Shown here in pieces: positions 11,971 to 64,000 of a stretch of 64,000 nucleotides of DNA; position 1 is the first letter of the stretch, and each line of letters opens with the position of its first letter. Position numbers and translations under genes: made by a program. This stretch comes from Candidatus Bathyarchaeota archaeon (GTDB taxonomy: Archaea; Thermoproteota; Bathyarchaeia; Bathyarchaeales; Bathycorpusculaceae): assembly GCA_963733095.1 (NCBI GenBank), contig CAVTBV010000013.1:64001-128000 (forward strand). The letters are read 5' to 3'. The notes under the pieces are model-generated. The model saw only the letters and a program-made list of their open reading frames with translations, had not been told where the DNA came from and searched no databases.

Positions 11971-12050
11971 CAATTTAAGCTTAATTATTGAAAATATCTT
12001 CAAAAATAGGATTAAAATGAAAATAATGGCGCGGATTGTGAGAATTGAAC
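11971..12050. repeat. degenerate att copy B plus left arm shared with copy C
   Basis: TGGCGCGGATTGTGAGAATTGAAC at 12027-12050 (21/24 to att core); upstream CAATTTAAGCTTAATTATTGAAAATATCTTCAAAAATAGG resembles 21024-21063. Confidence 0.8.
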
Positions 12051-12735
12051 ACCTTGTTTTTCCGCGGGTTATTTAATTTTTCCATGGTCGGTTATTATTT
12101 GACATGTGTGGTAGCCCGGAAGTTACCCTTCCCAGACTCGAATTTATTTCGAAAAATCCCTTTTTTATCTTATTGAAATCTACTATTAAAAAAGGTCACA
12201 ATTAAAACTAGAGTTAGGAATTGGAGTTGAACCCATATATGTTGGCGACATCGCCAATTCTGCTTCTCCTAAGCAGCTACTTTCTCTTTTTTTAACAATT
12301 CCTTCTATTCATTGGCGGGTATGGCAGGTTATCGCTCATGAACACAGGTCATTTGTACTTTTTCCCCTTTTTAGTATAAAAAAAAGTTTTTCGTGGAACT
12401 ACTATGAACTCCTGGCGTTATGCGATTTTAGTTTTCATTTAAGGCGTTCAAACTGGGCTGTGTAGGCTTCTTGTTAACGTTTACGATATTTGCATTATCG
12501 TAATGATTTTTTTCTCCTTAAGAATCTTTCCAGAAGCCTCAACAAACCATTGGAAGCAAAAATCTTTTCCGGTCAGATATATGACTGATTCGCGTTTCTC
12601 GCTTCATTTGATTTCCGCATTATTTATTTCGCTTTTAATTGGTAAGTACTGTCCTCTTTTTGAGACTCGCTACAAATAAGCAAAGCTTATTAGCCGGGTA
12701 TTAAACGCTTTTGTACCCAAAAGGAGAGAAGAAAA

Positions 12736-15435
12736 ATGCAATTTAAAACAAAAACAACTATTTTGATCGCAACATTTCTGATATTGACAATGGCTATACC
12801 TGCCATAATTCATCCTGCTAACGCACAGACTTCTAGCCAAATGAAATCATACGCTTTCATGGCGGTTGAGCCAAACCCAGTTGGTGTAGGTCAAACCACC
12901 TACATCGCAATGTGGGTTGACGTTCCACTACCTGGAGCATCAGAAGCCAACGATATCCGAAAGCATAACTATCTACTCACTATTACTGCACCCGACGGTA
13001 CTACACAAACACAAACTTGGGCTGTAGTTGCAGACACAACCGGTGCTCAATCAACATCCTTCACACCTACCCAAGTAGGAACCTACAAATTCGCCTTTAG
13101 CTACCCCAACCAAAATTACACATGGACCTCAGCAACTTACTTAGGTAACAACGCCTACACTGGCGTCATATTCTTAGGTGCCAATGCAACCGCAACCCTA
13201 ACAGTCCAAGAAAATCCAGTACCTCAAACACCAAATTCACCTCTGCCAAGTGAATACTGGACAAGACCAATTTACGGAGAAGATTTCAACTGGTACACTA
13301 TAGGATCACAATGGCTTGGAAGTGGTAGTTCCTATACTGCTGCCAGTAGCAACTACTTCGGCTCCTTCCAGCAAGGTGGTATGAACTTATGGCAACAAGG
13401 TGGAACAGGACCAGAAAGTTCACACGTTGTCTGGACAGCTCCATTTGAAGATGGAGGAGTCGTCGGCGGAATAAACACAGGTATCACTGGCGCAACCTTC
13501 TATTCAGGCGGTTCTTACGAAGGCAGATTCCAAAACGCATTGATTATAGACGGTAGACTCTACTACAAAGCACCATTAGGTGACCAAGTCAGCACAACTG
13601 CTACCGGCGCAGGGACCTATACATGCAGAGACTTACGTACAGGCGAAGTCCTTTGGACTAACGACAACATCAACCCAACATTCGGCGAACTATATGACTA
13701 CGAATCTCCAAACCAGCATGGAGTAGTTCCAAATGGCTACCTATGGCAAGCAGTAAGCCAATCATCTACAACACAGACATGGATAGCTTATGACTCATTA
13801 ACTGGCAAATGGTTATTCAATATTACCGATGTACCATCAACAGGCACAATCGCATATACCAGCCAAGGTGAAATCGTCAAATACATTCTAAGTTACAACA
13901 ACGCTGCAAAATCAGGTTGGCTAGCACTCTGGAACTGGACAAGTGCAAACGGAGTTCCTGCAAGTTCTACAACTGCTAATGGGGTACAATTAAATGGACC
14001 CGGATCAGGTACTAACTATCTACAGTTCAGACCAGTCGGCAGAATCATAAACGCAAGCACAGCATACTCATGGAACGTCACAATCGGCGACATAATGGGT
14101 CCATCAAACTCACAACTCGTTCCAGGCACTACAACAACGCAAAACCCAACAATACAGTATGTACTTCCAGGCGATTTACTATTTGGCACAACACCAAACA
14201 TTGCACCAGGTGTTCTATCAATAAGAGGCACCCCTAACCCATACACAGTTTGGACAATTAGCTTAGCAGACAGCGACAAAGGCACAATCATGTGGAAGAA
14301 AACATACGATGCACCAACAGGCAATATGACGCTCAATCTTGGCCCAATAGACCCAGTGAACCGCGTCTGGACCACGACTACCGCTGAAGACATGCAATAC
14401 CAAGGCTATAGTCTGGCTGACGGAAGTAAACTGTGGTCAACTAATACCGATGTACGCGCATTCCAATGGTTCAGCAGCGGCTCAGGCGCAGGCCAAAGAT
14501 GTGTAACTGCATACGGAAACATCTATACCCAAGGCTTCGGCGGCGAAATGTTTGCCTATGCAGCAAACAACGGCACTCTACTGTGGAAATTCAATGACAC
14601 AGCCAGCGGCATGGACACCCCTTGGGGTAACGTACCAATATTCATCGCTGCAATTGCAGACGGCAAAGTCTATGCATTCAACAACGAACACTCACCTAAC
14701 TCACCACTATACAAAGGATACAGCATCTACAGTCTAAACGCTACCACAGGCGAGGAAATCTACAAGATGCTCAGCTGGGCAGGACAAACCGGCGGACAAG
14801 GCTTAAGCACCTCTGTTCTAGCAGACGGCACACTAGTTTACTACAACTACTATGACAACTCACTCTATGCAATCGCTAAAGGTCCAAGTCAAACCACCGT
14901 AACCGCTTCACCGAAAGTCTCAACAAACGGTGACAAAGTCCTGGTAGAAGGCACAGTCACCGACATATCAGCAGGTACAAAACAAAACGAGCAAGCGGCA
15001 AGATTCCCTGCAGGCGTTCCAGCAGTCTCTGATGCAAGCCAAGCAGCATGGATGGAATACGTTTACATGAAACAAGAACGGCCAACCAATGCGACAGGCG
15101 TTCCAGTAACCTTAAGCGTACTCGACCCCAACGGCAACTACTACACTGTCGGCACAACCACAAGCGATTCAATGGGCAACTTCAAGCTGGCATTCACTCC
15201 ACAGGTACCGGGCGAATACAATATCTACGCAAACTTTGCAGGTTCTGGTGCATACTATGGTTCAGGCGCTGAAACCGCAATCGTCGTCGACAATACTGCA
15301 GCATCACCCACACCAGTCGCAACACAAGCACCATCAATGGCTGACCTATACTTTGTCCCAGGCATAATCGGCGTTATCATTGCGATAATCGTCGTTGGTG
15401 CGGTTCTACTCTTAGCTCTTAGAAAGCGTCCATAA
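12736..15435 (+). CDS. secreted, membrane-anchored PQQ-like beta-propeller surface protein
   Basis: Signal peptide, PNPVGVGQ, LPSEYWTRPI, repeated W-containing blades, C-terminal TM plus RKRP. Confidence 0.85.
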   Translation: MQFKTKTTILIATFLILTMAIPAIIHPANAQTSSQMKSYAFMAVEPNPVGVGQTTYIAMWVDVPLPGASEANDIRKHNYLLTITAPDGTTQTQTWAVVADTTGAQSTSFTPTQVGTYKFAFSYPNQNYTWTSATYLGNNAYTGVIFLGANATATLTVQENPVPQTPNSPLPSEYWTRPIYGEDFNWYTIGSQWLGSGSSYTAASSNYFGSFQQGGMNLWQQGGTGPESSHVVWTAPFEDGGVVGGINTGITGATFYSGGSYEGRFQNALIIDGRLYYKAPLGDQVSTTATGAGTYTCRDLRTGEVLWTNDNINPTFGELYDYESPNQHGVVPNGYLWQAVSQSSTTQTWIAYDSLTGKWLFNITDVPSTGTIAYTSQGEIVKYILSYNNAAKSGWLALWNWTSANGVPASSTTANGVQLNGPGSGTNYLQFRPVGRIINASTAYSWNVTIGDIMGPSNSQLVPGTTTTQNPTIQYVLPGDLLFGTTPNIAPGVLSIRGTPNPYTVWTISLADSDKGTIMWKKTYDAPTGNMTLNLGPIDPVNRVWTTTTAEDMQYQGYSLADGSKLWSTNTDVRAFQWFSSGSGAGQRCVTAYGNIYTQGFGGEMFAYAANNGTLLWKFNDTASGMDTPWGNVPIFIAAIADGKVYAFNNEHSPNSPLYKGYSIYSLNATTGEEIYKMLSWAGQTGGQGLSTSVLADGTLVYYNYYDNSLYAIAKGPSQTTVTASPKVSTNGDKVLVEGTVTDISAGTKQNEQAARFPAGVPAVSDASQAAWMEYVYMKQERPTNATGVPVTLSVLDPNGNYYTVGTTTSDSMGNFKLAFTPQVPGEYNIYANFAGSGAYYGSGAETAIVVDNTAASPTPVATQAPSMADLYFVPGIIGVIIAIIVVGAVLLLALRKRP

Positions 15436-21023: not shown

Positions 21024-21145
21024 CAATTTGAGCTTAATTATTAAAAAGAGGTTCATAAATAGGTTGAATTTGGTAATGGCGCGGGATGTTAGATTTACAC
21101 CCACGTTTAAATTCCACACGAAAAAATAAAAAGACGGTTAGGAGA
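21024..21145. repeat. degenerate att copy C with both shared arms
   Basis: TGGCGCGGGATGTTAGATTTACACCCACG at 21077-21105; left arm like copy B, right arm like copy A. Confidence 0.85.
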
Positions 21146-22790: not shown

Positions 22791-23129
22791 ACATGCTAAT
22801 CACTTTTAACGTATATAAGAGCGCTCGCTAACCAGACCAAAATTATGCTTGTCCGTACAGCTTTTTGTATAGATAGCCAACAACTATTCCTGGGAAGAGA
22901 AACCTTGGAATGTTCATTACTGTGTCGACCAAAAGTAGACATAGGTATTGCTTAGATTGCCAAAAGTTGAAAGGACTTCGATGATGACTAAGGCAACAAA
23001 GCTAAGGATCAAGGCTTATAGAATTGGGCTGAAAAATTCAGAAATTTGCAAGCACAATGATTTTTATCTTTTTCCTGAGCCCTTTTTTGGTAAATAACAA
23101 AAAATTAAGCTCTGTTTGGCAAAAGGAGC

Positions 23130-24017
23130 GTGGCGCGGGATGTGGGAATTGAACATACTGCTCCTGAGTTTATGGTCTATCTTAAACAGAATATTAGGGA
23201 AGTTACTGCTAAAACATACGTTAAACGGCTAGGACTTCTTAGTAAGGTAGCTAATCTGGATGATGCTGAGAAGACTAAAAATGTGATTTGTAGTTATCCA
23301 TGTACCGAATCGTTTAAGGAATTAATGGCTAGTGCATATGATTACTATGTTCGTTACAAAGGTCTAACTTGGAATAAACCCAGATTCACAAGAGATGATA
23401 AACCATTCTTTATTCCGTTAGAAACTGAGATAGACCAACTAATCAGTAAATCTAGAAAGAAGATGTCTGTGTTTCTACAGTTGCTTAAGGAGACTGGTGC
23501 CGATTCTGGTGAAGCATGGAAACTAAGATGGCTTGATGTTAACCTTGAAAATAAAACTGTTGCTATCACACCTACAAAGAATCATAATTCTAGGGTATTG
23601 CCGATTTCTAATAATTTGCTGTCTAGAATGCTAAGTTTGCAACGTGAGAATGAAAGAGTATTTGGTTGTAATGCTCATACGCTCGATGATTTCAGACGTA
23701 GATTTGAAGACATGAAGAATGCGCTTAGTATAAAACTAGAGAATCCCAGATTAAAGGAGATAGCATTCCGTTCATTTAGGCATTGGAAAGCAACAACTGA
23801 GTACCATAAAACAAAGGATATTTTGCATGTTAAATGGTTGCTGGGTCATAAACGGATTGAGAACACGTTAGTCTATACGCATCTAGTAAACTTTGATAGT
23901 GATGAATACGTCTGTAAGGTTGCTAAGACTCTTGATGAGGCTTCTGTTCTGATTGAATCTGGATTTGAATATGTTACGGAGATGAATAGTGTTAAATTGT
24001 TCAAAAAACGCAAATAG
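23130..24017 (+). CDS. tyrosine integrase, C-terminal fragment int(C)
   Basis: Begins inside att; ETGxxxGE, TKNH, RSFRHWKAT, LLGHK, TLVYTH. Confidence 0.9.
   Translation: MARDVGIEHTAPEFMVYLKQNIREVTAKTYVKRLGLLSKVANLDDAEKTKNVICSYPCTESFKELMASAYDYYVRYKGLTWNKPRFTRDDKPFFIPLETEIDQLISKSRKKMSVFLQLLKETGADSGEAWKLRWLDVNLENKTVAITPTKNHNSRVLPISNNLLSRMLSLQRENERVFGCNAHTLDDFRRRFEDMKNALSIKLENPRLKEIAFRSFRHWKATTEYHKTKDILHVKWLLGHKRIENTLVYTHLVNFDSDEYVCKVAKTLDEASVLIESGFEYVTEMNSVKLFKKRK
23131..23154. repeat. attL (24 bp, identical to tRNA-Ser 3' end)
   Basis: TGGCGCGGGATGTGGGAATTGAAC. Confidence 0.95.
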
Positions 24018-24108
24018 TTAATTTAAATAGTAGCTTCCAACAAATGCTTTCTTGTCTGGCGAAATTAGTTTGGCTGTTAGACCAATAAAAAAATAACGGA
24101 CTAGGCAA

Positions 24109-24684
24109 ATGAGCGACATAAACAATAATTGGAGATTTACTCGAACACCAGTAGCCCCAGACAAACTAAAACAACTAAAGCAACAATCAAAAGCAAAAAC
24201 TATTGAGTTTTTAATATCTCAAGTACCACAGGGAATTGAACTTTGCAAACAAAATATTGCAGATTTTATAAATGATGCGAGAATCATAAATGAGAAAGGC
24301 AGACTTTGTCACGCATATGTATCTTTCGAGTTTGCTCTTGAAGAATTTGGGAAAATAATGATGTTAAAAGAAGCACTAATTAATTCGGTAGTCAACGATA
24401 AAATTGTTGTAAGTAAAGACTTTTTTAAACACAATAGAAAGTGTGAGAAAGCGATTGAAAAATTGGGTGCTGAGTTCAAATCTGTGTATGATATGAATTG
24501 GTTTCTAAGAGAAACGCTCGGACTATATCCTTTATGGTATGGCACTAAAACCAGCCACGAGACAAGAACAGACTGTGCTTTTGTAAATTATAGAAACGAT
24601 GAATTTGTAATTGGAAGACCAATTGACTCCGTGAAATTTATTAAACTCATAAATCAATTAGAAGAAAAAACAATGTTGGAATAA
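24109..24684 (+). CDS. AbiV-family (HEPN) abortive-infection-like protein
   Basis: FINDARII...AYVSFEFALEEFGK...FFKHNRK pattern. Confidence 0.7.
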   Translation: MSDINNNWRFTRTPVAPDKLKQLKQQSKAKTIEFLISQVPQGIELCKQNIADFINDARIINEKGRLCHAYVSFEFALEEFGKIMMLKEALINSVVNDKIVVSKDFFKHNRKCEKAIEKLGAEFKSVYDMNWFLRETLGLYPLWYGTKTSHETRTDCAFVNYRNDEFVIGRPIDSVKFIKLINQLEEKTMLE

Positions 24685-24836
24685 TTTACTGCAAGGACGA
24701 ATTCCCGTAAATGTTTTCATAAGACACTACTGGAGTCCTAAGTTAGTTGAGTTGCGAGACAGAATCCTTAAGGCATTAGAGCTTTTAGATAAAGAACGAC
24801 AGCAACCATTAGTAACAAGATGACGTATTCTGGAAA

Positions 24837-25349
24837 CTAAGTAAACGTAAATCGATTTGATGACTTATGTTCTTCCTGTTTTTTTGTTATTTGTTTAAAT
24901 TCGTTTTGTAATGGTATATAAACTGTTGTTATCGAAACTATTCCAACATAAAAGAATGCGGCAGAAGCTACCATGAAAATACCCACTATATAATAGCCTC
25001 CTGTATTGTCGGGATTTTGAACAGTTAACCAAAGAGCATCAATTACTACCGAACCTAAATAAAGTACAAAAGTAATTATAACTCCAAAGAACAGACGTAC
25101 AGGCATTTTTTTCAAGTAATTTATGTCTTTACGCAATTTGGTAAGTTGCTTCATTTCTTTATTATTGGAAACAGGTGTAATATTACTTTTGACTTCTTCA
25201 AATTTCGCTAACTTATCGTTTAACTCCGTATTTAATTCTTCAAAAACTCGATGAAACATTGGTATAATCAGCGCGTATGCAGCAAGAACCAATCCAGCTC
25301 CAGTTATACTCGCTTCCATGAAACCAATAACAATGGATGAGTCTATCAA
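24837..25349 (-). CDS. hypothetical membrane protein (3 TM plus coiled coil)
   Basis: Hydrophobic segments flanking a charged helix. Confidence 0.65.
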   Translation of the reverse strand: MIDSSIVIGFMEASITGAGLVLAAYALIIPMFHRVFEELNTELNDKLAKFEEVKSNITPVSNNKEMKQLTKLRKDINYLKKMPVRLFFGVIITFVLYLGSVVIDALWLTVQNPDNTGGYYIVGIFMVASAAFFYVGIVSITTVYIPLQNEFKQITKKQEEHKSSNRFTFT

Positions 25350-26448
25350 ATTCTCGTCCCTACACCATTATATTTCAATGATGCTCGCATTTAAGACTTC
25401 TCACTAACAGAACATACGAGTTAGAATTTCATAAACTATCCCTTACTAACGCCATAACCCAATACTCAATAACCGTATATACAACTACAGATGCCCATCT
25501 GACTGTATCGACACCTTCTAGTCGATTATGTTTATTCACTAAGATGTCAATTTTATTTCTCTCATTCATATATTTGTTTATTTGTGTTATTTCATTACAA
25601 AGATTTCTTGTCTAGATTCCAACTGCATTTGCTCTATCGTCACATAATAGCATTTATATTATAGATTTGCTTATCTTTACATGCTACAAGGGTGTTACGG
25701 AAATCGTTTTACTCATGGAGTAGTCGGTTTAAAAACCTATTACAGAAGCGTCTGTACCTCAATGAGGCTAAGTGTGGATTAATGGCTAGTTCCCCTAGGC
25801 ATAGGCTTCAGGATATTAAGAACTAGTAAACAAGCAGATTAGTAAAACCGCTAGTGAAATTGCTATTAGGATAAACTATGTCTCTAGTGATGTATTATTT
25901 CTCTATTGATATAGTATGTCTTTAGTGTGTCTAAGTATATGCATTTATCCAAACCGTTCATCTAGCTTGGTTATCTGTCTGTTTTAGTTACCGACTTATT
26001 TTTATTAAACGGATTTTTGTAGTTAAATTGGGAAAATGATGTGGGAAGCATCTTTCGTTGTGTGAAATCTTGGTTAAAAGTTGAGTGTGGGTAAAATCTC
26101 TATGAAAGGTTGTTTTTGTAATTGTTATAAGAAAAAGAATAACTGTTGGAGAGATAAAAACCATTGCTACATGGATGAAACGAAACAAATCTCTAACAGG
26201 CATATTTAGTTGATGTAAGAGTGGTGAATTATTTAAGGGTTAGTGGTGAGTTGGTATAGATGCAAAGAAATCTCTAATTGTTGGTGTATTAGTTGGAATG
26301 TATTTTGTTGGAAATCTTTAGATGTGGGAAGTATAATTTTAGTGTAGATGAACATCTGGTAAATTAATCGATGAAGTGATTATAGGTCTATTTAGGTACA
26401 TATATTAGGGGGCATTTAGTAGTGTTTAAGTATGGGGGATAAGATGAT

Positions 26449-26811
26449 ATGAGTGAAATTGGGGATAATTATATAGCAGTTATTAATTCAGAAATAAAAG
26501 CTGGATTGTTAAAGTGTGATAAGTTGCAAACTATTGTAAAAGATGCTTTAGGAGAAGATGACTACCAAACGGCACGGCGGGCTGGGAATGAATTCCGAAT
26601 GGAAATTGCAGTTATAATGCAGAAGAATGATGAGCAGATGGTTGAGGTACTTAAAAGACAACGTGTAGATGCATTTGGTGGGTATATGCCAACAACGCTC
26701 TCAGGTGGGTCAAAAAACAGAGATGTTACAAAAAGTGATGATGAAAGTGAAATTATCAGCAGAATATTAAGAGGAGAAATCAAAAGTGTTAGAACGGCTA
26801 TGGAATCGTAA
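26449..26811 (+). CDS. hypothetical protein (element operon gene 1)
   Basis: 120-aa ORF with G-rich RBS upstream. Confidence 0.6.
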   Translation: MSEIGDNYIAVINSEIKAGLLKCDKLQTIVKDALGEDDYQTARRAGNEFRMEIAVIMQKNDEQMVEVLKRQRVDAFGGYMPTTLSGGSKNRDVTKSDDESEIISRILRGEIKSVRTAMES

Positions 26812-27016
26812 AAAAACGGGTAAAAAGGCAGTTGAGGTTACAGAAATGCAAACAGCAATTCCTAAAGTGAATAGAGGCTGTGTTCGTTGTAGATATGCGA
26901 TTATAAAAGATGGTTGGCACGTTGAGTTAAACCGATGCCTTTCGAGGGGTTTGGTATTAGGCAAAGATATAACGAAAGAGGATGGCTGTGAGAAATTCAG
27001 TCCTTTGGAGGGTTAA
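26786..27016 (+). CDS. small Cys-containing protein
   Basis: CVRC...C...C; overlaps neighbours. Confidence 0.5.
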   Translation: MLERLWNRKKTGKKAVEVTEMQTAIPKVNRGCVRCRYAIIKDGWHVELNRCLSRGLVLGKDITKEDGCEKFSPLEG

Positions 27017-27018
27017 AA

Positions 27019-27201
27019 TTGCCGAGGCGTATGGGGATTTATCCAAGAAAACCAATAAGCATAACTTTAGACGTTGAAACGATAGCAATGTTGCAAGCGG
27101 TTAAAACCGTAATGGGTATGAGTTCTTTGAGTTCTACGATTGAGGACTTATGTATTATTGGAATCAAGAATTCAAAATTTCCGCAAGGGAGTAGAGATTA
27201 A
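27019..27201 (+). CDS. ribbon-helix-helix-like DNA-binding protein
   Basis: RKPISITLDVETIAML...LSSTIEDL. Confidence 0.55.
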   Translation: MPRRMGIYPRKPISITLDVETIAMLQAVKTVMGMSSLSSTIEDLCIIGIKNSKFPQGSRD

Positions 27202-27202
27202 A

Positions 27203-27712
27203 ATGAGCGGAAACTTAATCGTAAAAGATTCATGCATAGAATGTAAACACGTTTCAGAAAAAATAGAGTTTGGTTACTGTGACTGTGACACTAACGATTA
27301 TTCAAAAGGAGAAAAATCGCAAGCCGAAATATCTTGGCTAAGACGACACGGCAAACTGTCAGAAATTAAAAAACCGTTAAGCTATACGATTGCTTCGGTT
27401 GAACAACCCTTAGAAAACGTAATTTCTGCAATGCAGAGGCTATCTGACGAAAGCGCTAGACTACACGGAATCACAAAATCGCTCAGTGATGACTTACAGA
27501 GAAAAAATCGTAAGAGAAAACTTAGATATACAAAATTGAAATTGGAAGTCTCAGTTTCTAAAAGGCTAGAAAAATCAAAGACGCAATTAGAAAAGGGTAA
27601 AAATGAGGTGCTGAAGAAAAGTGACAACTTTGTGGTTTTGGGTGCGCTTAATGGCATGAAAGGCGTTGAAATTACTGGATGGATTGAAAAGAAATTAGTG
27701 GATGGTAACTAA
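27203..27712 (+). CDS. hypothetical protein with CxxC/CxC and basic coiled coil
   Basis: ATG directly after RHH stop; CIEC, CDC. Confidence 0.55.
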   Translation: MSGNLIVKDSCIECKHVSEKIEFGYCDCDTNDYSKGEKSQAEISWLRRHGKLSEIKKPLSYTIASVEQPLENVISAMQRLSDESARLHGITKSLSDDLQRKNRKRKLRYTKLKLEVSVSKRLEKSKTQLEKGKNEVLKKSDNFVVLGALNGMKGVEITGWIEKKLVDGN

Positions 27713-27713
27713 A

Positions 27714-28112
27714 ATGGTTGGTAAGACAGAGAAGTTTATTTTAACTAGTGGGTTGCAGACTGTAGCGTCTGGGTTAGCAACTGCTTTTAGTGTCGATGGT
27801 ACGGGTAAGCTAAGGCATCTTAACATATTGAATGATGGTACGTCTGGTACAGTAACAGTTTGTATTTATTCTGATTCTGGGTTAGTAGTGACTTATGGCA
27901 CAGCTACGCTTGGTTCTGGTGGTTTCGTTCCTGATGTGGATATTATTGGGAGTGCATTGCAGGGGTCTGGTGCGGTTTTAGTTTCAGGTTCTCCAACATT
28001 GAATCAAGAAATAAGTTTCGTGACTAATTTGACAGTGCAGTATTTTAAAACTAGTGGTACAGTGACTTTGACGGGAATAGCGGACATTAACAAAAACATC
28101 ATTCAAACTTGA
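27714..28112 (+). CDS. beta-strand-rich hypothetical protein (possible virion/jelly-roll protein)
   Basis: G/S/T/V-rich alternating pattern, few charged residues, no TM; structural role is inference. Confidence 0.5.
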   Translation: MVGKTEKFILTSGLQTVASGLATAFSVDGTGKLRHLNILNDGTSGTVTVCIYSDSGLVVTYGTATLGSGGFVPDVDIIGSALQGSGAVLVSGSPTLNQEISFVTNLTVQYFKTSGTVTLTGIADINKNIIQT

Positions 28113-28136
28113 GCGAAATGAAGGAAGTAAATCTCT

Positions 28137-28385
28137 ATGGTAGTTTCACTCGGAATTTTACATAATAAAGTGAGACCTCGAAAGGCATGGGGTAGTCAAG
28201 ATTCCGTAAAATGCAGTGGATGCGGTAGGGTGCTTTTGACGAATGAACAGGTTTATCGTATTGGTAAACTCAGACAATCGTATGTTTATAGAGGATTTAA
28301 AATTGATTCAAAACAAGGATACCGCCTTAGATATTTTGGGGATTGTTGCATTAATCAAGTTTATGTTGATGGAGATGAAAAGTAA
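28137..28385 (+). CDS. small zinc-binding protein
   Basis: CSGC ... DCC. Confidence 0.55.
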   Translation: MVVSLGILHNKVRPRKAWGSQDSVKCSGCGRVLLTNEQVYRIGKLRQSYVYRGFKIDSKQGYRLRYFGDCCINQVYVDGDEK

Positions 28386-28804
28386 TGAAAGATAAACCTA
28401 TTGTCCCAACCGAAAAAGAGTTGAAAGAGGATTATGGAAAGGCTAATTTACGTGAAAAGCATTTTAGGATTCATCCCGATATTGACGATTTGATTAAAAA
28501 ATACTCTAAGATTCTGAGACGTTCAGAGGCAGATATAGCTAATGAAATGATGAGAATTGGCATTTTATCGTTTCAATTGAAGCACGGGTTGCGGTCTAAG
28601 TTGGCACCGTTGATGATTGGTCGGGATTCAGATTTAACTAAACAGTTGAACGACAGAGTTAATTTGATTCTGGAAAAGAAAAAAGCGGAACGTGCAAAGA
28701 AGGCAAATGACCTAAGCGATGCGTTTAGTAAAAAGATAGCTCATGGTTCAAAGGAAGACTGGGAACAGTATAATGATTATAGCGGTAACGTTGAAGAGCA
28801 TTAA
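28385..28804 (+). CDS. RHH-like DNA-binding protein
   Basis: KHFRIHPDIDDLIKKYS...SEADIANEMMRIG; TAATG coupling. Confidence 0.55.
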   Translation: MKDKPIVPTEKELKEDYGKANLREKHFRIHPDIDDLIKKYSKILRRSEADIANEMMRIGILSFQLKHGLRSKLAPLMIGRDSDLTKQLNDRVNLILEKKKAERAKKANDLSDAFSKKIAHGSKEDWEQYNDYSGNVEEH

Positions 28805-29140
28805 TTTACTAGGTAATCTAAGATAGGGGGATTTTTAAGAGTAAAAAAACGGTTATTGTGATACATCTTTCCATGGAAAAACAGATAGAGATTGAATAGA
28901 ACAGTAATGAATAGCATGGTAAAATCCCTATGTAATAACCTATGTGTCAATGTCAATAGGGGTATGGCTGGGACTGTGGACGATGGTATTTCTTATTTAG
29001 TGAATTTATGTTCTCGGTTATTTTTGAGGTTTGCTGTTTAGTTAACAGGTCGGGGGCTACAGTATTACGTGTTTCTGGGATTTTTGTGAGTTTTTTGTCC
29101 TGCAACATTTTAAATACCTAAAGCAATAATAGGAGATTTT

Positions 29141-29818
29141 ATGAGTGAAGAGGATTCTATTTTTGACAAGCTAATGGATAGAATTATTTATGTTCTTATA
29201 ATAGTCGCTGTGATAACAGGAGTTGCTGATTATTTTCGTGATTCTTTAGGCACTTGGTTTCGTCAAAATTGGATAGGTGTTACAGTAGCGGTTGGTGTAT
29301 CTTTTCTAGTATGGTTTTTAGTTTTGATATTGCAAGTTTTCTTAGAAGGCTCAAGTGAATATGGTAAGAAAGTGAAGTTAAAGAAATCAATTATAAGAAA
29401 AAGAATTCTGAAGGAAAGACTCAAAGAACTTGAAGGTCTTGATTTGACAACAGAAGAAAAAGAGTTACAGATTAGTGAATGGGTTGAGAAGGCGTATCAT
29501 AACGAAATTTTAGGTATCTCTACATCAGCATCAACGGAGTCTAAAATAGAACCAGATGTCGAAAAAGTCCCATCTTTATCACAGAGAGAGAAAGAAATAA
29601 TGATAAACAAAGTTAGTACTCGATGCTGTTATCCGAATTGTAGGGAGTCCATCTCTTTAGAGGTACACCATATAATACCGAGAAGTGAAGGCGGAACAAA
29701 CAAAGAAAATAACTTAATTGTTTTATGCAATAATCACCATCATTTAGCAGACAGAGGCGCAATTTCAAGAGATAGATTAAAAATGTACAGCGTAGCAAAA
29801 ATGAAAGATGAATTTTGA
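29141..29818 (+). CDS. HNH endonuclease with two N-terminal TM helices
   Basis: CCYPNC...LEVHHIIPRSEGGTNKENNLIVLCNNHH. Confidence 0.85.
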   Translation: MSEEDSIFDKLMDRIIYVLIIVAVITGVADYFRDSLGTWFRQNWIGVTVAVGVSFLVWFLVLILQVFLEGSSEYGKKVKLKKSIIRKRILKERLKELEGLDLTTEEKELQISEWVEKAYHNEILGISTSASTESKIEPDVEKVPSLSQREKEIMINKVSTRCCYPNCRESISLEVHHIIPRSEGGTNKENNLIVLCNNHHHLADRGAISRDRLKMYSVAKMKDEF

Positions 29819-29991
29819 AGTATTAGAATATTCAATTATTAAGGCATATCTGATATGATTGGATTACGTATGGGCTCTAGCAAAATAGCTAGGCAATACA
29901 TCTGAGTTAATGGGTTAATTTTTAGGACTTTTATTGGGTGGAAACTCTTATATGCTTATAGGTGTATGATTATGTTGGAAGGGATAAGAAA

Positions 29992-30303
29992 ATGGTTAAC
30001 GATTATGAATTTGAAGAAGTGGAAAATCTCCCTACAGTAAAAAGAAATAGAATTGGATTGTACACGACTCTTTTAGAACAGTTTAATGCTAGCGGTAAAT
30101 CTAAGGTTCGGTTGAATTGGAAAGGCAAAGCCGCTCTAGACACGGTGGCTGTCAGTTTAAGAAAAGCAGTTAAGATTAATCCATCGTTGAAAGTTGACGT
30201 TATGTCTGTAAGCAAAATAAATCCAGATAGCAAAAAACGAGAAGTCTGTGAAATCTATCTGTCTAAAACTGTAGAAACAGAACATAAAAAGAAGAGTAGG
30301 TGA
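29992..30303 (+). CDS. small basic hypothetical protein upstream of int(N) (possible excisionase/regulator)
   Basis: Lys/Arg-rich 103-aa ORF, 6 bp before int(N); role inferred from position. Confidence 0.55.
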   Translation: MVNDYEFEEVENLPTVKRNRIGLYTTLLEQFNASGKSKVRLNWKGKAALDTVAVSLRKAVKINPSLKVDVMSVSKINPDSKKREVCEIYLSKTVETEHKKKSR

Positions 30304-30309
30304 GTAAAC

Positions 30310-30388
30310 ATGAAAGACTCTGCTAATAATGGTCAAACACTAAAGACGCTGTGGGTTCAAGGAATGGCGCGGGATGTGGGAATTGAAC
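30310..30388 (+). CDS. integrase N-terminal fragment int(N)
   Basis: MKDSANNGQTLKTLWVQGMARDVGIE reads into attR in the same frame as int(C); GGTGA RBS. Confidence 0.8.
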
Positions 30389-30451
30389 CCACGCGGCCTT
30401 TCGACCACAGACTTAGCAGGCCTGCCCCATACCAGGCTTGGGGAATCCCGC
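30365..30451 (-). tRNA. tRNA-Ser(GCT), CCA encoded
   Basis: GCGGGAT/ATCCCGC acceptor, CAGGC-CTGCTAA-GTCTG anticodon arm, long variable arm, GGTTCAATTCC T-arm, discriminator G. Confidence 0.96.
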
Positions 30452-60882: not shown

Positions 60883-61065
60883 TGCATGGTTCTCCAGTAG
60901 CTTAGAAAATGGCTGGTTGAATATTTAAGCGGCTCGAAACCAAACCGCTTGTTTTTTCCTCGATTCTGGTGGTTTATTTTTTTTAACCAATGAAGTCTTT
61001 TAGTTTTTTATTAGTCTTCTTTCGATTACAAGTGACCTTGGTTTACAAAGTACCAAACACATTCG

Positions 61066-61260
61066 ATGACTGATTATCTCCTTAAAATTGTCCTTGACAA
61101 TCCAGAATTGTTTCCTGAGATTGCCCAGCTTACAAATTATCAGACCAAAACAAAAAATAGCAAAGCTGAATTGACAGAGCTTTTTGGAAAGTACGATAAC
61201 GAAGTAACCACACAAATATTGAGCAGAGGTGACCAAGGACTTAATCCCATCCTCTTTTAA
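61066..61260 (+). CDS. hypothetical protein
   Basis: 64-aa ORF. Confidence 0.35.
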   Translation: MTDYLLKIVLDNPELFPEIAQLTNYQTKTKNSKAELTELFGKYDNEVTTQILSRGDQGLNPILF

Positions 61261-61357
61261 AGAAAACATTATAGACCATTTATAACTACAGATGATCTAA
61301 CCAAAAAAAAGAAGCCTCCAAAAAAAGAAAAAGAGAGTATGTTCTATTATTATGTTA

Positions 61358-61756
61358 TTATTTTTCTGGTCTTTCAAGCAGTTCTATATAGCCAAAAACA
61401 GGCAGTTCCAAATCTTCTCGTCTATATCCTTTGAACGCAACGTGTTTTTCCCATCTGTCAGGGTCTACCAGAACAGTTCTGTGGTCAACGTAGATTAGTT
61501 TTTCAAAGGGAACGATTTTTTCAGAAACTTCTTTGTCGGGTAATTCTTCGCCAAGCTTACATCTTTCCATTGCCCAACGTTTAGCTTCTTCTTCAGTCAA
61601 TTTGAAACCGCTAATAGTATCAATTCCTATTTCCTCATTCAGTATCCAATCTTCTACGTGACCTTTGAGTTGATGCACATGCCCTGTTTTGGAATATTCT
61701 TCAAGGTCGATGTCCCTATTGTCATCTATGACTAATAACAGATAGATTTTGTTCAT
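61358..61756 (-). CDS. hypothetical protein
   Basis: 132-aa acidic ORF. Confidence 0.6.
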   Translation of the reverse strand: MNKIYLLLVIDDNRDIDLEEYSKTGHVHQLKGHVEDWILNEEIGIDTISGFKLTEEEAKRWAMERCKLGEELPDKEVSEKIVPFEKLIYVDHRTVLVDPDRWEKHVAFKGYRREDLELPVFGYIELLERPEK

Positions 61757-61922
61757 AATTTCAGCCTAATTGATATTCTACTCAATGCAGAATTAAGACT
61801 TTTTGTTTCGCACTGATTAGGTTCATAGCCTTAAACTGCAATAAGTCACAAGTCTACGCTATTCGCTGTTTCGTATGTTAAACTTTTAAGCAATAGGTTG
61901 TTTAGATAGTAGGGGGAAATGT

Positions 61923-62036
61923 GTGGATAAAAAACCTATTACCGTCGCCGAAGCAGGAAGGTTAGTCTCACGGAAATTAAAAGGGAGAAAAATCCCACAC
62001 CAAGTTAACAGAACCCATTTTAGTATCCCTCAATAG
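61923..62036 (+). CDS. 37-aa basic microprotein
   Basis: GTG start after GGGGG RBS; MDKKPITVAEAGRLVSRKLKGRKIPHQVNRTHFSIPQ. Confidence 0.35.
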   Translation: MDKKPITVAEAGRLVSRKLKGRKIPHQVNRTHFSIPQ

Positions 62037-62061
62037 GGGTTATAGAAGAAAAAGATATTGG

Positions 62062-62421
62062 TTATCGGGCTTTTTCGTTGTCTTTTTTCTCTTCAAGTTT
62101 TCTGGCTTCTCTTTGAATCTGTTCTTGAGCATATGCAATCAACAGACACAAACCGTTGTTTGCCACACACATTTCGCTGTCTTTTAATGAAATTGCCATA
62201 TCATAGAAAATGTTTTCAATTTCTTCTTCGGCATCTGGCTGCAACTTTAGTGATGATAAGTCGAGGTGTGTTTCTGCAAAAGGAAATCGCCCCTGCAACT
62301 CTTGAAGTATTGTTCTTTTTTCGCACAACTGCCTAGTCTCTTTTATCGGCATACCTTTTCCTATGTCAACGAGCATGTTCAAATTGAAAGTCAAATAAGT
62401 CAATAGGTTGATTTTTACCAT
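62062..62421 (-). CDS. hypothetical protein
   Basis: 119-aa ORF with GAGGGG RBS. Confidence 0.6.
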   Translation of the reverse strand: MVKINLLTYLTFNLNMLVDIGKGMPIKETRQLCEKRTILQELQGRFPFAETHLDLSSLKLQPDAEEEIENIFYDMAISLKDSEMCVANNGLCLLIAYAQEQIQREARKLEEKKDNEKAR

Positions 62422-62480
62422 TTATTGGACCCCCTCGCAGTATCATTCGAAGCGATCATTAGTTTACCTATCTTCATGCT

Positions 62481-62684
62481 TCAGCACGCAGAATCTAAAC
62501 AATTAAGCTTTTGTTTTTCGTCCTTCAAAACGAACTTGTAACATTCACAGTTAGGTTTAATACATACTCTATCTAGAAAAATCGAGTGCTCACTTTTAAG
62601 ATGCCCACACGTGCACATTTCATCTTTAATTTTAGCTTTATCCATCAAAATTTCTCTTGTTAAATAAACAACCTTAGCCTTCAA
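62481..62684 (-). CDS. small Cys/His zinc-finger protein
   Basis: CTCGHLKSEH...C...CEC. Confidence 0.55.
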   Translation of the reverse strand: MKAKVVYLTREILMDKAKIKDEMCTCGHLKSEHSIFLDRVCIKPNCECYKFVLKDEKQKLNCLDSAC

Positions 62685-62690
62685 AAAGCT

Positions 62691-62888
62691 TTAGGTGTGG
62701 TTATAATTAAATTTTAGTACTGATAACAAAAAAGAAAGAATACAAAAACCTCGTGTAATTATATTACACACTCTATCAGCCCTATTAAAATAGGCAATTT
62801 TATTGTATGTTCCATTTATAGGCTTAAAAAAAGGTAGTGTTACTACTACGTAACCTAGGAAACTAAACGTAACATATTTTTCACCCAA
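62691..62888 (-). CDS. small hypothetical membrane protein
   Basis: 65-aa hydrophobic ORF. Confidence 0.3.
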   Translation of the reverse strand: MGEKYVTFSFLGYVVVTLPFFKPINGTYNKIAYFNRADRVCNIITRGFCILSFLLSVLKFNYNHT

Positions 62889-62905
62889 AAGAGTGTCTCT
62901 ATTCT

Positions 62906-63082
62906 TTACTTAACAAGTTCGTCACTTGGAACAAGAATTGTGGGATACTCTAGTGAACCACTTGATTTGTTACCTGTTTTCGTGTGACCCTTCGTGCATC
63001 TCATTCCGATTCTTGTTTTGGCTGCATTTTCCCAAATCTTTTCCGTTGGTCCACCACATATTGGGCACTTAAAATCTTTCAT
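62906..63082 (-). CDS. 58-aa zinc-ribbon protein (not in ORF track)
   Basis: MKDFKCPICGGPTEKIW...MRCTKGH; GGTGA RBS. Confidence 0.6.
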   Translation of the reverse strand: MKDFKCPICGGPTEKIWENAAKTRIGMRCTKGHTKTGNKSSGSLEYPTILVPSDELVK

Positions 63083-63212
63083 ATAATTTCACCAAAACCA
63101 AAAAATCAAGAGTGAATAAAACGTAACTGTGTATTTCCAATTTTTTTCTCTCCTTTAGAGTTATGTTGACTTGTTTTCTTAAGTCTTCCTACCAAAGAAA
63201 AAGAGTTAAGGC

Positions 63213-63524
63213 TCAAGTTTTTTTATTCATCTTACGCTCTAACGCTTTATCGTAAGTAAAGTCATAGTCTGTTATCCACTGTTGCCAACTTTTCTTTTTT
63301 ACGGGATCAATATGTTTCGCTATATCTGGGGCTGTCCACAAACACCGGATACACATATTAACAGTTTCAAGGCCATCTTCTTGATCCTCTTTTGCGATTG
63401 TCTTAATTGCAGCTTCCTTTTTTGAATAGAAGCGACCACATAAAGGACACTTAACGTCGCTGAGTTCGCCAACCACTTCTCTAATTTCCCTATTTTGTTT
63501 TCCGTTAGCCTTCTTCTTGGCCAT
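63213..63524 (-). CDS. zinc-finger hypothetical protein
   Basis: CPLCG...CIRC; TAATG-coupled. Confidence 0.65.
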   Translation of the reverse strand: MAKKKANGKQNREIREVVGELSDVKCPLCGRFYSKKEAAIKTIAKEDQEDGLETVNMCIRCLWTAPDIAKHIDPVKKKSWQQWITDYDFTYDKALERKMNKKT

Positions 63525-63856
63525 TATTTAGCGCCTTCTTTTTCAAGTTTTTCTATAGATTCCGTGAGTTGTTTTTGAAGTTTCTGTAGTGTTGGATGCT
63601 TTGCTAAATTGGGATTTTCTTCTATTAATGGGACCAATTCCGAAAAAGCTTTCTCTAAATAATTTCCTATAACTTCAAGGTATAAATTCCAAAGCTTGGG
63701 CATAAGCATATTGTAGATGTCATCGTCGGTAAATCCTTCTTGACGCATTTTTGTAAAAATATCCGTTTCTACATTATCAATTAGGATGTTTTTAGCTGCT
63801 TTACTTGCTTCTATGAACTCTCTAAAAGTCATTTCAGATGTTTTCTTGCTTATCAT
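63524..63856 (-). CDS. hypothetical protein
   Basis: 110-aa helical ORF. Confidence 0.6.
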   Translation of the reverse strand: MISKKTSEMTFREFIEASKAAKNILIDNVETDIFTKMRQEGFTDDDIYNMLMPKLWNLYLEVIGNYLEKAFSELVPLIEENPNLAKHPTLQKLQKQLTESIEKLEKEGAK

Positions 63857-64000
63857 GGTTTAGAGCCTTCGACTTTAGCAAGGAATTGCTTGATTAATTC
63901 CAGATCACTGTTTATTGATTCCTTAATTTGCAACTTTGTTTTTTATTTTATTTGAAAAAGGCTTTTTACATCATAAACACTATAATAGGTAGCAGCCTTC

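Follow-up and report, generated by a model that had tools for sequence, protein, structure and literature searches.

A putative small integrated element of Bathyarchaeia at tRNA-Ser(GCT) with its attachment site inside the frame of a Xer-like integrase gene

The window analysed here is a stretch of 64,000 nucleotides from Candidatus Bathyarchaeota archaeon (GenBank assembly GCA_963733095.1, contig CAVTBV010000013.1, positions 64,001 to 128,000 of the forward strand), and its subject is a putative integrated element of 7.2 kb whose attachment site (att) lies within the reading frame of its own integrase gene. The unit is bounded by an exact 24-nt direct repeat at 23131-23154 and 30365-30388 (24/24 identical, start-to-start spacing 7,234). 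A search with a 23-nt pattern of the repeat returned these two exact matches and 12028-12050 with three mismatches, the expectation from 100 shuffles being 0.00. The right copy (attR) is the 3' end, CCA included, of tRNA-Ser(GCT), the sole tRNA identified in the window by ARAGORN (Rfam tRNA, 50.7 bits). The GC content is 0.33-0.39 between the repeats vs 0.40-0.48 in the flanks. A preliminary description of the locus, made from the letters alone, had proposed a 24-bp att bounding a 7,234-bp unit, and this was confirmed by the exact repeat, the lack of chance matches and the low GC inside. The Rfam scan returned nothing apart from the tRNA, and the repeat search nothing except att and one 15-nt motif pair. 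The ammonium-transporter gene in the host flank is 90-94% identical to many Bathyarchaeota metagenome-assembled genomes (MAGs), and relatives of the host lineage come from wetland, peat and sediment MAGs. Please refer to Table 1 for the coordinates of all features.

Table 1. Features of the putative element and its attachment sites (window positions)
Feature	Position	Strand	Description
int(C)	23130..24017	+	295-codon tyrosine recombinase body with all conserved core-binding and catalytic regions
attL	23131..23154	.	24-nt copy of the tRNA-Ser 3' end, within the 5' end of the integrase frame
HEPN/AbiV-family protein, 191 aa	24109..24684	+	PF18728 and TIGR04498; variable cargo
SSV-family relic	24686..24823	+	last 45 codons and stop of a PF16795 integrase gene, upstream part replaced
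Membrane protein, 170 aa	24837..25349	-	convergent with the HEPN gene; variable cargo
ORF-free stretch, 1.1 kb	25350..26448	.	no open reading frame (ORF) of at least 47 aa, no Rfam match, no notable repeats
Operon of seven small ORFs	26449..28804	+	120, 76, 60, 190, 136, 82 and 139 aa
Non-coding stretch or 30-41-codon micro-ORF	28822..29039	+	after the 139-aa gene; 69% identical to L119
225-aa protein	29141..29818	+	hydrophobic N-terminal part, C-terminal HNH nuclease (PF01844, 3.1e-7); variable cargo
113-aa conserved orphan	29962..30303	+	immediately before int(N)
int(N)	30310..30364	+	ATG and 17 codons (18 in total), preceded by AGGTGA, in frame into attR
tRNA-Ser(GCT)	30365..30451	-	3' 24 nt (30365-30388) are attR

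The interior of the element is single-copy in its own genome, and searches of 40 relatives and of 400 other genomes of the class did not find it. In the relatives G003, G019 and G010, the sequence that aligns with the ~75 nt to the left of attL directly abuts an intact tRNA-Ser, so the 7.2-kb unit is an insertion at this tRNA; the same 75 nt also align with a contig end in G016. Within the genus, tRNA-Ser(GCT) is a hotspot for integration. In G003, G015 and G019, partial copies of its 3' end were found 1.4-6.6 kb away, enclosing islands without an integrase. When the translations of these islands were read by eye (L109 on G019:C5, L110 on G003:C1 and L111 on G015:C18), ABC transporter, Fic-like, PIN-like and OLD-like ATPase proteins were seen. 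The window itself holds two further decayed copies of the tRNA-Ser 3' end, at 21078-21107 and 12028-12050, 2 kb and 11 kb left of attL. These suggest earlier integrations with integrases that have since gone. It follows that the sequence to the left of attL probably derives from older islands. Beside the copy at 21078 lies a 24-33-nt stretch (21100-21132) of which several genomes have further copies with 91-100% identity, two of them inside the G003 island and three on G016:C4.

The 295-codon ORF at the left end matches PF00589 with an E-value of 2.4e-14 and 53.9 bits (cut-off 27.1). Codons 2-9 of this ORF are the att sequence, and at attR the frame extends further upstream: the ORF starting at ATG 30310 reaches the right repeat after 18 codons and passes through it in the frame that the 295-aa ORF uses to pass through the left one. 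The proposal that att lies inside the integrase frame was thus borne out, frames running through both copies, and simple addition (18 + 295) gives the 313 codons of the integrase that was expected to be rebuilt on a 7,234-bp circle. In the integrated state, GTG 23130 is a possible start. The layout was compared with the two published arrangements of archaeal integrase genes. Suicidal integrases of the SSV type are defined by an att within the ORF and by separation of the gene into int(N) and int(C) (PMC7253208 and PMC8371274, cited here, as is the other literature below, from excerpts of the text). At the present locus the recombination site does lie inside the integrase ORF and the gene is split, the split-off part being 18 codons. 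The pNOB8-type arrangement, in which the gene is intact and att is outside the ORF, does not fit the locus, where att makes up codons 2-9 and the frame continues upstream at attR. What is cut off amounts to the 18 codons and the promoter side, so that every conserved domain stays in Int(C). 'Suicidal' inactivation of the enzyme could not be upheld, since the severed 18 codons carry no conserved domain. Whichever start is used, integration would exchange everything upstream of codon 19, namely the promoter side, the AGGTGA ribosome-binding site and the start region.

On the evidence that follows, the close integrase clade and the element family are characterised by an att inside the coding sequence. 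Close relatives were taken as proteins with 57-74% identity to the window integrase, and 120 of these were examined out of 2,451 proteins found at E<=1e-30. For comparison with their N-termini, tRNAs from the window genome or from fetched loci were translated. Among the close-clade proteins, 53 have at least 20 residues in front of the first conserved helix, and 44 of these contain a tRNA-derived 6-mer or longer, in forward tRNA orientation in 35 and in reverse in 9. The tRNA-derived peptide ends a median of 15 residues before that helix (9-19 residues in 40/44) and is preceded by at least five residues in 15/44. As a control, such a 6-mer was found anywhere in the remaining ~270 residues in 15 of the 120 close proteins. 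Two of the 15 proteins that extend upstream of the tRNA-derived stretch, P0019 and P0086, do so by N-terminal parts of ~85-100 residues in which a CxxC...H...H pattern is seen.

Genomic context was available for 13 close-clade loci, and at eight of them a same-strand tRNA overlaps the 5' end of the integrase frame with its 3' end. A second copy of the tRNA 3' end was located in five of these eight. Three of the elements so delimited have no detectable replicase: L126 (26-nt repeat, 5,084 bp), L127 (24-nt repeat, 3,285 bp) and L132 (32-nt repeat, 10,685 bp). L170 (26-nt repeat, 6,724 bp) encodes a protein-primed PolB (1.3e-22) and a Cas4-like nuclease, and L131 (16-nt repeat, 7,723 bp) a prim-pol/PriCT protein. 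The L170 element is integrated at tRNA-Leu and its PolB gene occupies L170:1107-3317 (-), with a dATP/dGTP diphosphohydrolase domain also nearby; the prim-pol/PriCT protein of L131 is encoded at 12562-14661 (+). No stop codon interrupts the integrase frame across att in any of the five loci, in the window or in L125, which has two alternative 18-nt distal att copies. An in-frame start was found 12-66 codons before the distal copy in L126, L127, L131, L170, L125 (for both candidate copies) and the window, and none before the distal copy in L132. A sister element was recognised on the metagenome contig L120, which has the 190-, 136-, 139- and 113-aa genes in common with the window. There, an ATG ORF begins directly after the stop of the 113-aa homologue and extends for 58 codons into an opposite-strand tRNA-Val(TAC), which is the layout of the window at a different tRNA and with more codons in int(N).

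The family of the enzyme was assessed with profile searches. PF00589 was matched by 39/39 aligned clade members and PF16795 by 0/39 even at E<=1; the latter is the domain carried by pTN3-like, pT26-2-like and SSV suicidal integrases, for which a single origin has been proposed (2021 review, PMC8371274). When the clade profile was searched against the PDB, archaeal XerA was the best match (5hxy, 9.2e-14; 4a8e, 1.1e-12), further matches being P2-type, integron, XerH, HP1 and XerD recombinases, and the SSV1 integrase was not among the 20 PDB matches at E<=10. The best NCBIfam model was also archaeal XerA (NF040815), scoring 63.3 bits against an equivalog cut-off of 220, so that the protein is not an equivalog. 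By these searches the window integrase is Xer-like and belongs to a separate, Bathyarchaeia-specific clade outside the SSV family. The SSV1/pTN3-type partitioning put forward in the preliminary description therefore stood in part: the topology was recovered clade-wide and in the sister element of L120, whereas membership of the protein in the SSV1/pTN3 family was not supported, with no PF16795 match in the clade, no SSV1 structure among the PDB matches and XerA as the best of these.

The catalytic tetrad of tyrosine recombinases is R...HxxR...Y (PMC8371274). When the window integrase was aligned by HMMER to XerA and to a P2-type integrase, Asp125 stood opposite the first catalytic Arg and Arg214 opposite the His of HxxR. 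Lys150, Arg217, His240 and Tyr249 are kept and are conserved in the clade. Among the 120 close proteins, the first motif is mostly of the TGxDxGE type (TGADSGE in 47, TGVDSGE in 32, TGADAGE in 12, and minor variants; none in 10), and Asp stands at the Arg I position in ~100 of the 110 clade members in which the motif occurs. For the second motif, 85 proteins have RxxRH and 30 have KxxRH (115/120). In contrast to this, 118 distant relatives are canonical, with TGxRxGE and with HxxRH in 105/118. Close to the catalytic Lys the clade has further changes of its own: Thr149 in place of Glu, His152 in place of Ser and Arg166 in place of Met. The persistence of the altered site in more than 100 sequences, and the precise att duplications that flank elements encoding such enzymes, argue that the remodelled enzymes are likely to work.

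A trace of a different integrase was detected behind the HEPN gene. In a class-wide DNA search, window ~24676-24808 resembled gene 3' ends in several genomes, and the translation of 24686-24820 gave 45 residues of which 34 (76%) are identical to the C-terminus of a G400 protein (L258:598-1620; E 6e-24), with the same stop. The homology ends at the HEPN gene stop codon. The full proteins of G400 (341 aa) and G020 (284 aa) score 29.3 and 28.6 bits against PF16795, above its cut-off of 27, and each has a tRNA-like peptide at its N-terminus or close to it; such peptides in both PF16795 proteins examined (L258 and L084) are as expected for split forms. PF16795 was found in 114/401 Bathyarchaeia genomes at E<=0.001, in 94 of them above the cut-off. 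This 45-codon relic argues that the element once carried an SSV-family integrase, or recombined with a carrier of one, and suggests that the integrase module was swapped within the element.

The 191-aa protein is assigned to the AbiV type by its matches to PF18728 (2.8e-9, 37.7 bits vs 27.1) and TIGR04498 (38.6 bits vs 27), and has no PADLOC match. The N-terminal part of the gene for the 170-aa membrane protein is 78% identical at the DNA level to G415:C82. The 1.1-kb stretch upstream of the small-gene operon is a candidate promoter or origin. No Pfam, PHROG or NCBIfam family was matched at significant E-values by the seven operon ORFs; their description as orphans accompanied by defence-like cargo proved accurate, an AbiV-type HEPN protein and an HNH nuclease being present. 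The 60-, 190-, 136- and 139-aa genes are syntenic in metagenome relatives, and a conserved core common to six metagenome contigs (1-3.5 kb) comprises the genes for the 60-, 190- and 136-aa proteins, a Zn-ribbon-like small protein, and the 139- and 113-aa proteins. Taken together, the core proteins are small and DNA-binding-like, apart from one with a weak likeness to a jelly-roll. By eye, the 60- and 139-aa proteins are ribbon-helix-helix-like, the former with a weak NikR match (0.022), and the 82-aa protein is Zn-ribbon-like. The 190-aa protein had nine HMMER matches at E<=0.001 among 1.84 billion representatives (46-190 aa, no fused forms), and its predicted model consists of a poorly resolved Zn-finger region and one 87-residue helix (predicted local distance difference test, pLDDT, 70; predicted template modelling score 0.31). 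In the ESM Atlas, the best score of the 113-aa protein was 0.86, with no family. A tblastn search with 11 cargo proteins gave no match in 81 integrase loci or in the 13 close-clade loci.

In L119, the ~220 nt that follow the 139-aa gene are conserved to the same degree as the coding DNA, and they are conserved in L120 too. This stretch holds an invariant 9-bp inverted repeat and, at 28828, a 15-nt motif that recurs at 29077. An RNA-fold signal was absent from 28822-29039 (z-score +0.93, the 9-bp stem never varying), and the stretch may be a micro-ORF or a protein-binding site. Elsewhere in the window, a 60-85-nt sequence at ~22830-22914 is repeated in its own genome (on C7 and at another place on C13) and in at least five other genomes of the genus at 81-90% identity, and could be regulatory or similar to a miniature inverted-repeat transposable element. 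A second low-GC stretch (0.35-0.36) with small minus-strand ORFs occupies 61000-64000, runs off the window end and is possibly another mobile element.

The reading that we favour, and consider likely to be correct, is that of a small Bathyarchaeia element integrated at tRNA-Ser(GCT), with att inside its own integrase gene, so that integration cuts the integrase transcription unit. A tyrosine recombinase would have inserted the element into the 3' end of tRNA-Ser(GCT). In the circular form, a plus-strand operon would run from the small genes through the 113-aa gene, ATG 30310, attP and the integrase body to the HEPN gene. Integration, which the repeats demonstrate, would cut this transcription unit and leave its promoter side, ribosome-binding site and 18 codons beside the tRNA, while the complete recombinase body would end up 7.2 kb away behind host-side DNA. 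Because Int(C) keeps every conserved domain, the likely effect would be that integrase expression is switched off or much lowered after integration, and not that the protein is destroyed. The HEPN gene behind the integrase would most likely be cut off from the free-form operon as well. Propagation would depend on host or helper functions. Neither a replicase, a helicase, a packaging ATPase nor a known capsid was found in the Pfam, PHROGs, NCBIfam and PADLOC scans, the largest ORF being the 295-aa integrase, which agrees with the earlier failure to see any Rep, primase, MCM, terminase or packaging ATPase. Hallmarks of known archaeal virus and plasmid families (capsid, packaging ATPase, rolling-circle replication Rep, prim-pol, MCM, protein-primed PolB) were likewise absent from these scans. 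The element is best called a cryptic integrated element, and could be a virus, plasmid, satellite or remnant.

Several points weigh against this reading. The int(N) part is short, at 18 codons, and has no conserved domain. Translation could in truth begin at the att-encoded Met/Val codon (ATG in attR, GTG 23130 in attL), and no residues would then be lost. Starts are also frequent in the two other frames before the distal att of the examined loci, and an in-frame start is therefore weak evidence by itself; most N-termini in the protein databases are automatic gene calls that run upstream through any open frame. The window copy may be a reduced one, given that its int(N) is without the Zn-ribbon-like part present in L120, P0019 and P0086 and that it is without the 62-65-aa gene of L119 and L120. 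Asp in place of Arg I might suggest an inactive enzyme, and only the precise att duplications counter this. Finally, neither an attP junction nor an empty attB was obtained from public sequencing runs, the best of 14 covering 0.07 of the sampled words, and excision and the circle are therefore inferred. When four of the runs were mapped, they yielded host-flank and tRNA pieces alone, with no joint across the element or attP, and one contig (X3, record 20) ends six letters past attL and is uninformative on the junction.

The alternative that survives best, although we judge it unlikely, is that the unit is what remains of a larger element, now decayed and immobile, from which the replicase and part of the integrase system were lost by deletion and recombination. 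Truncation of the SSV-family relic at the HEPN stop codon, the 1.1-kb ORF-free stretch, the missing 62-65-aa gene and Zn-ribbon-like int(N) part, and the two decayed att copies at 21078 and 12028, downstream of the tRNA, would all fit such a history. The preliminary description had foreseen that much larger relatives with replication genes would mark this copy as a deletion remnant. Replicases (PolB or prim-pol) do occur in L170 and L131, which are of similar size and carry integrases of the same clade; relatives sharing the element's own core, however, were met only on the 1-3.5-kb contigs. The closest homologues of the integrase (P0010, P0011 and P0012) and those of the 136-aa protein (P0002 and P0004) are encoded on contigs of 7-14 kb. 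The smallest and largest of the delimited close-clade elements (L127 at 3.3 kb, L132 at 10.7 kb) and L126 (5.1 kb) have no detectable replicase either, and its absence is therefore common in these elements. Moreover, the att copies are still identical at every position and the GC contrast with the host is still sharp. The integrase and core genes are uninterrupted and 46-81% identical to those of relatives, with no frameshifts.

Somewhat less probable again is a classical pNOB8-like gene, in which the integrase would start at or after att (at GTG 23130, at the att-encoded Met or at ATG 23172), att would only adjoin the gene and the 18 codons of int(N) would be open by chance. Such a layout is that of the more distant relatives (41-50% identity), for which 244 and 508 stretches were confirmed by tblastn in two scans and 118 loci were analysed. 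These loci have whole genes, and an opposite-strand tRNA lies within 150 bp after the stop in 53 of the 118; among the rest, 6 have a same-strand tRNA after the stop, 2 an upstream tRNA and 57 none in range. Att repeats upstream of the integrase gene were confirmed in L054 and L057 only. Most distant integrases have an N-terminal part of 100-170 residues with a 4-Cys Zn-ribbon. A FastTree phylogeny built from 82 close sequences and 115 distant ones placed the close set in one clade with a support of 0.77 under midpoint rooting, a result that is partly circular as the sets were defined by identity to the query. In keeping with a start at att, gene callers begin P0010 and P0012-P0014 at the att-encoded Met, and the frequency of starts in other frames has been mentioned above. 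However, eight att-encoded codons would lie inside the ORF even so, and ATG 23172 falls within the first conserved helix, past a conserved Phe; no ATG was seen between att and the helix when translations of L126, L127, L170, L131 and L133 were read by eye. AGGTGA is at normal spacing from ATG 30310, whereas the GGAG before GTG 23130 ends 1 nt from it. The fixed position of the tRNA-derived peptide in 40/44 proteins and the direct coupling of the 58-codon int(N) of L120 to its upstream gene also argue for a frame that begins before att.

In support of a tiny virus or satellite, with the 136-aa protein as a capsid or virion protein and packaging by the element alone or by a helper, this best-conserved core gene (seven homologues, 64-81% identity) has an all-beta AlphaFold2 model whose best Foldseek matches are jelly-roll/TNF-like folds (infectious bursal disease virus VP2, E 5.4e-4) and small uncharacterised phage proteins (template modelling score up to 0.63-0.73), and its nearest ESM Atlas clusters (score 0.91) are 86-100% viral. 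We consider this idea no more probable than a pNOB8-like gene, for the model has a pLDDT of 53.6, which makes the fold matches an unreliable lead, the protein has no PHROG or Pfam match, no packaging ATPase, portal or membrane-protein hallmark was found in the element, the 136-aa family was absent from the genome contigs searched and had 0 confirmed members in IMG/VR, where the nearest integrase clade was also not found (two distant integrase matches only), and a CRISPR-like array (clustered regularly interspaced short palindromic repeats) was seen in 0/10 loci fetched around DNA matches in the 401-genome class search.

With the split-gene element kept as the favoured reading, its relation to known systems can be set out. 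It resembles SSV1, pTN3 and pT26-2 in that att is a tRNA-gene segment inside the integrase ORF near the 5' end, and in that the element, once integrated, has int(N) at one end and int(C) at the other. It differs from the SSV family in carrying PF00589 and not PF16795, in having XerA as the closest solved structure and Asp for Arg I, in an int(N) of 18 codons without a conserved domain, and in its host, a Bathyarchaeia lineage of mesophilic habitats. Its att of 24 nt is also shorter than the 40-50 nt given for suicidal integrases in excerpts of PMC8371274, and according to a 2020 paper (PMC7253208) these are found mainly in hyperthermophiles, five being from Methanosarcinales. The pNOB8-type Bathyarchaeia integrases belong to the same superfamily, are homologous over residues ~13-295 and target tRNA 3' ends as well; the whole gene, the att after the stop, the N-terminal 4-Cys Zn-ribbon and the canonical active site of that type are all absent here. 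The thaumarchaeal cryptic integrated elements (Krupovic et al., 2019, PMC6563490) are similarly small and att-flanked, with an integrase and orphan genes and often without replication or virion genes, and one of them, NitEve-E3, has an SSV1-like split integrase; they differ in host class and in integrase clade. A full-text literature search for an SSV-type integrase in Bathyarchaeota found no paper (supplements lay outside the search), and the Bathyarchaeia virus paper PMC10848311 mentions integrases, with no split in the portions of its text consulted.

In the myxophage Mx8, attP lies within the coding sequence of the integrase gene intP, so that integration alters the gene; that case differs in being bacterial and in having the site near the 3' end, the C-terminus being changed. 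On a wider view, for which we would claim slightly less than even confidence as a whole, the att-in-gene design arose a second time, independently of the SSV family, in a Xer-like Bathyarchaeia clade of active enzymes with a rebuilt catalytic site, in which Asp replaces a first Arg that is nearly universal elsewhere, Arg or Lys replaces the first His, and His152 and Arg166 are new; the elements of this clade would form a pool of 3-11 kb that swaps integrase modules with the SSV-family integrases of the same hosts, and the split would act as an expression switch without destroying the gene. The element itself is more ordinary, one more of the many small cryptic integrated elements in which no replication genes can be recognised, and it also shows what appears to be integrase replacement within a single element. 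A clade without the first catalytic Arg beside precise att duplications is a testable exception to the textbook active site. If the wider view is true, the self-splitting architecture would be a convergent solution in a different recombinase clade, and would have a simpler rationale, namely that integration disconnects the integrase from its promoter and start codon.

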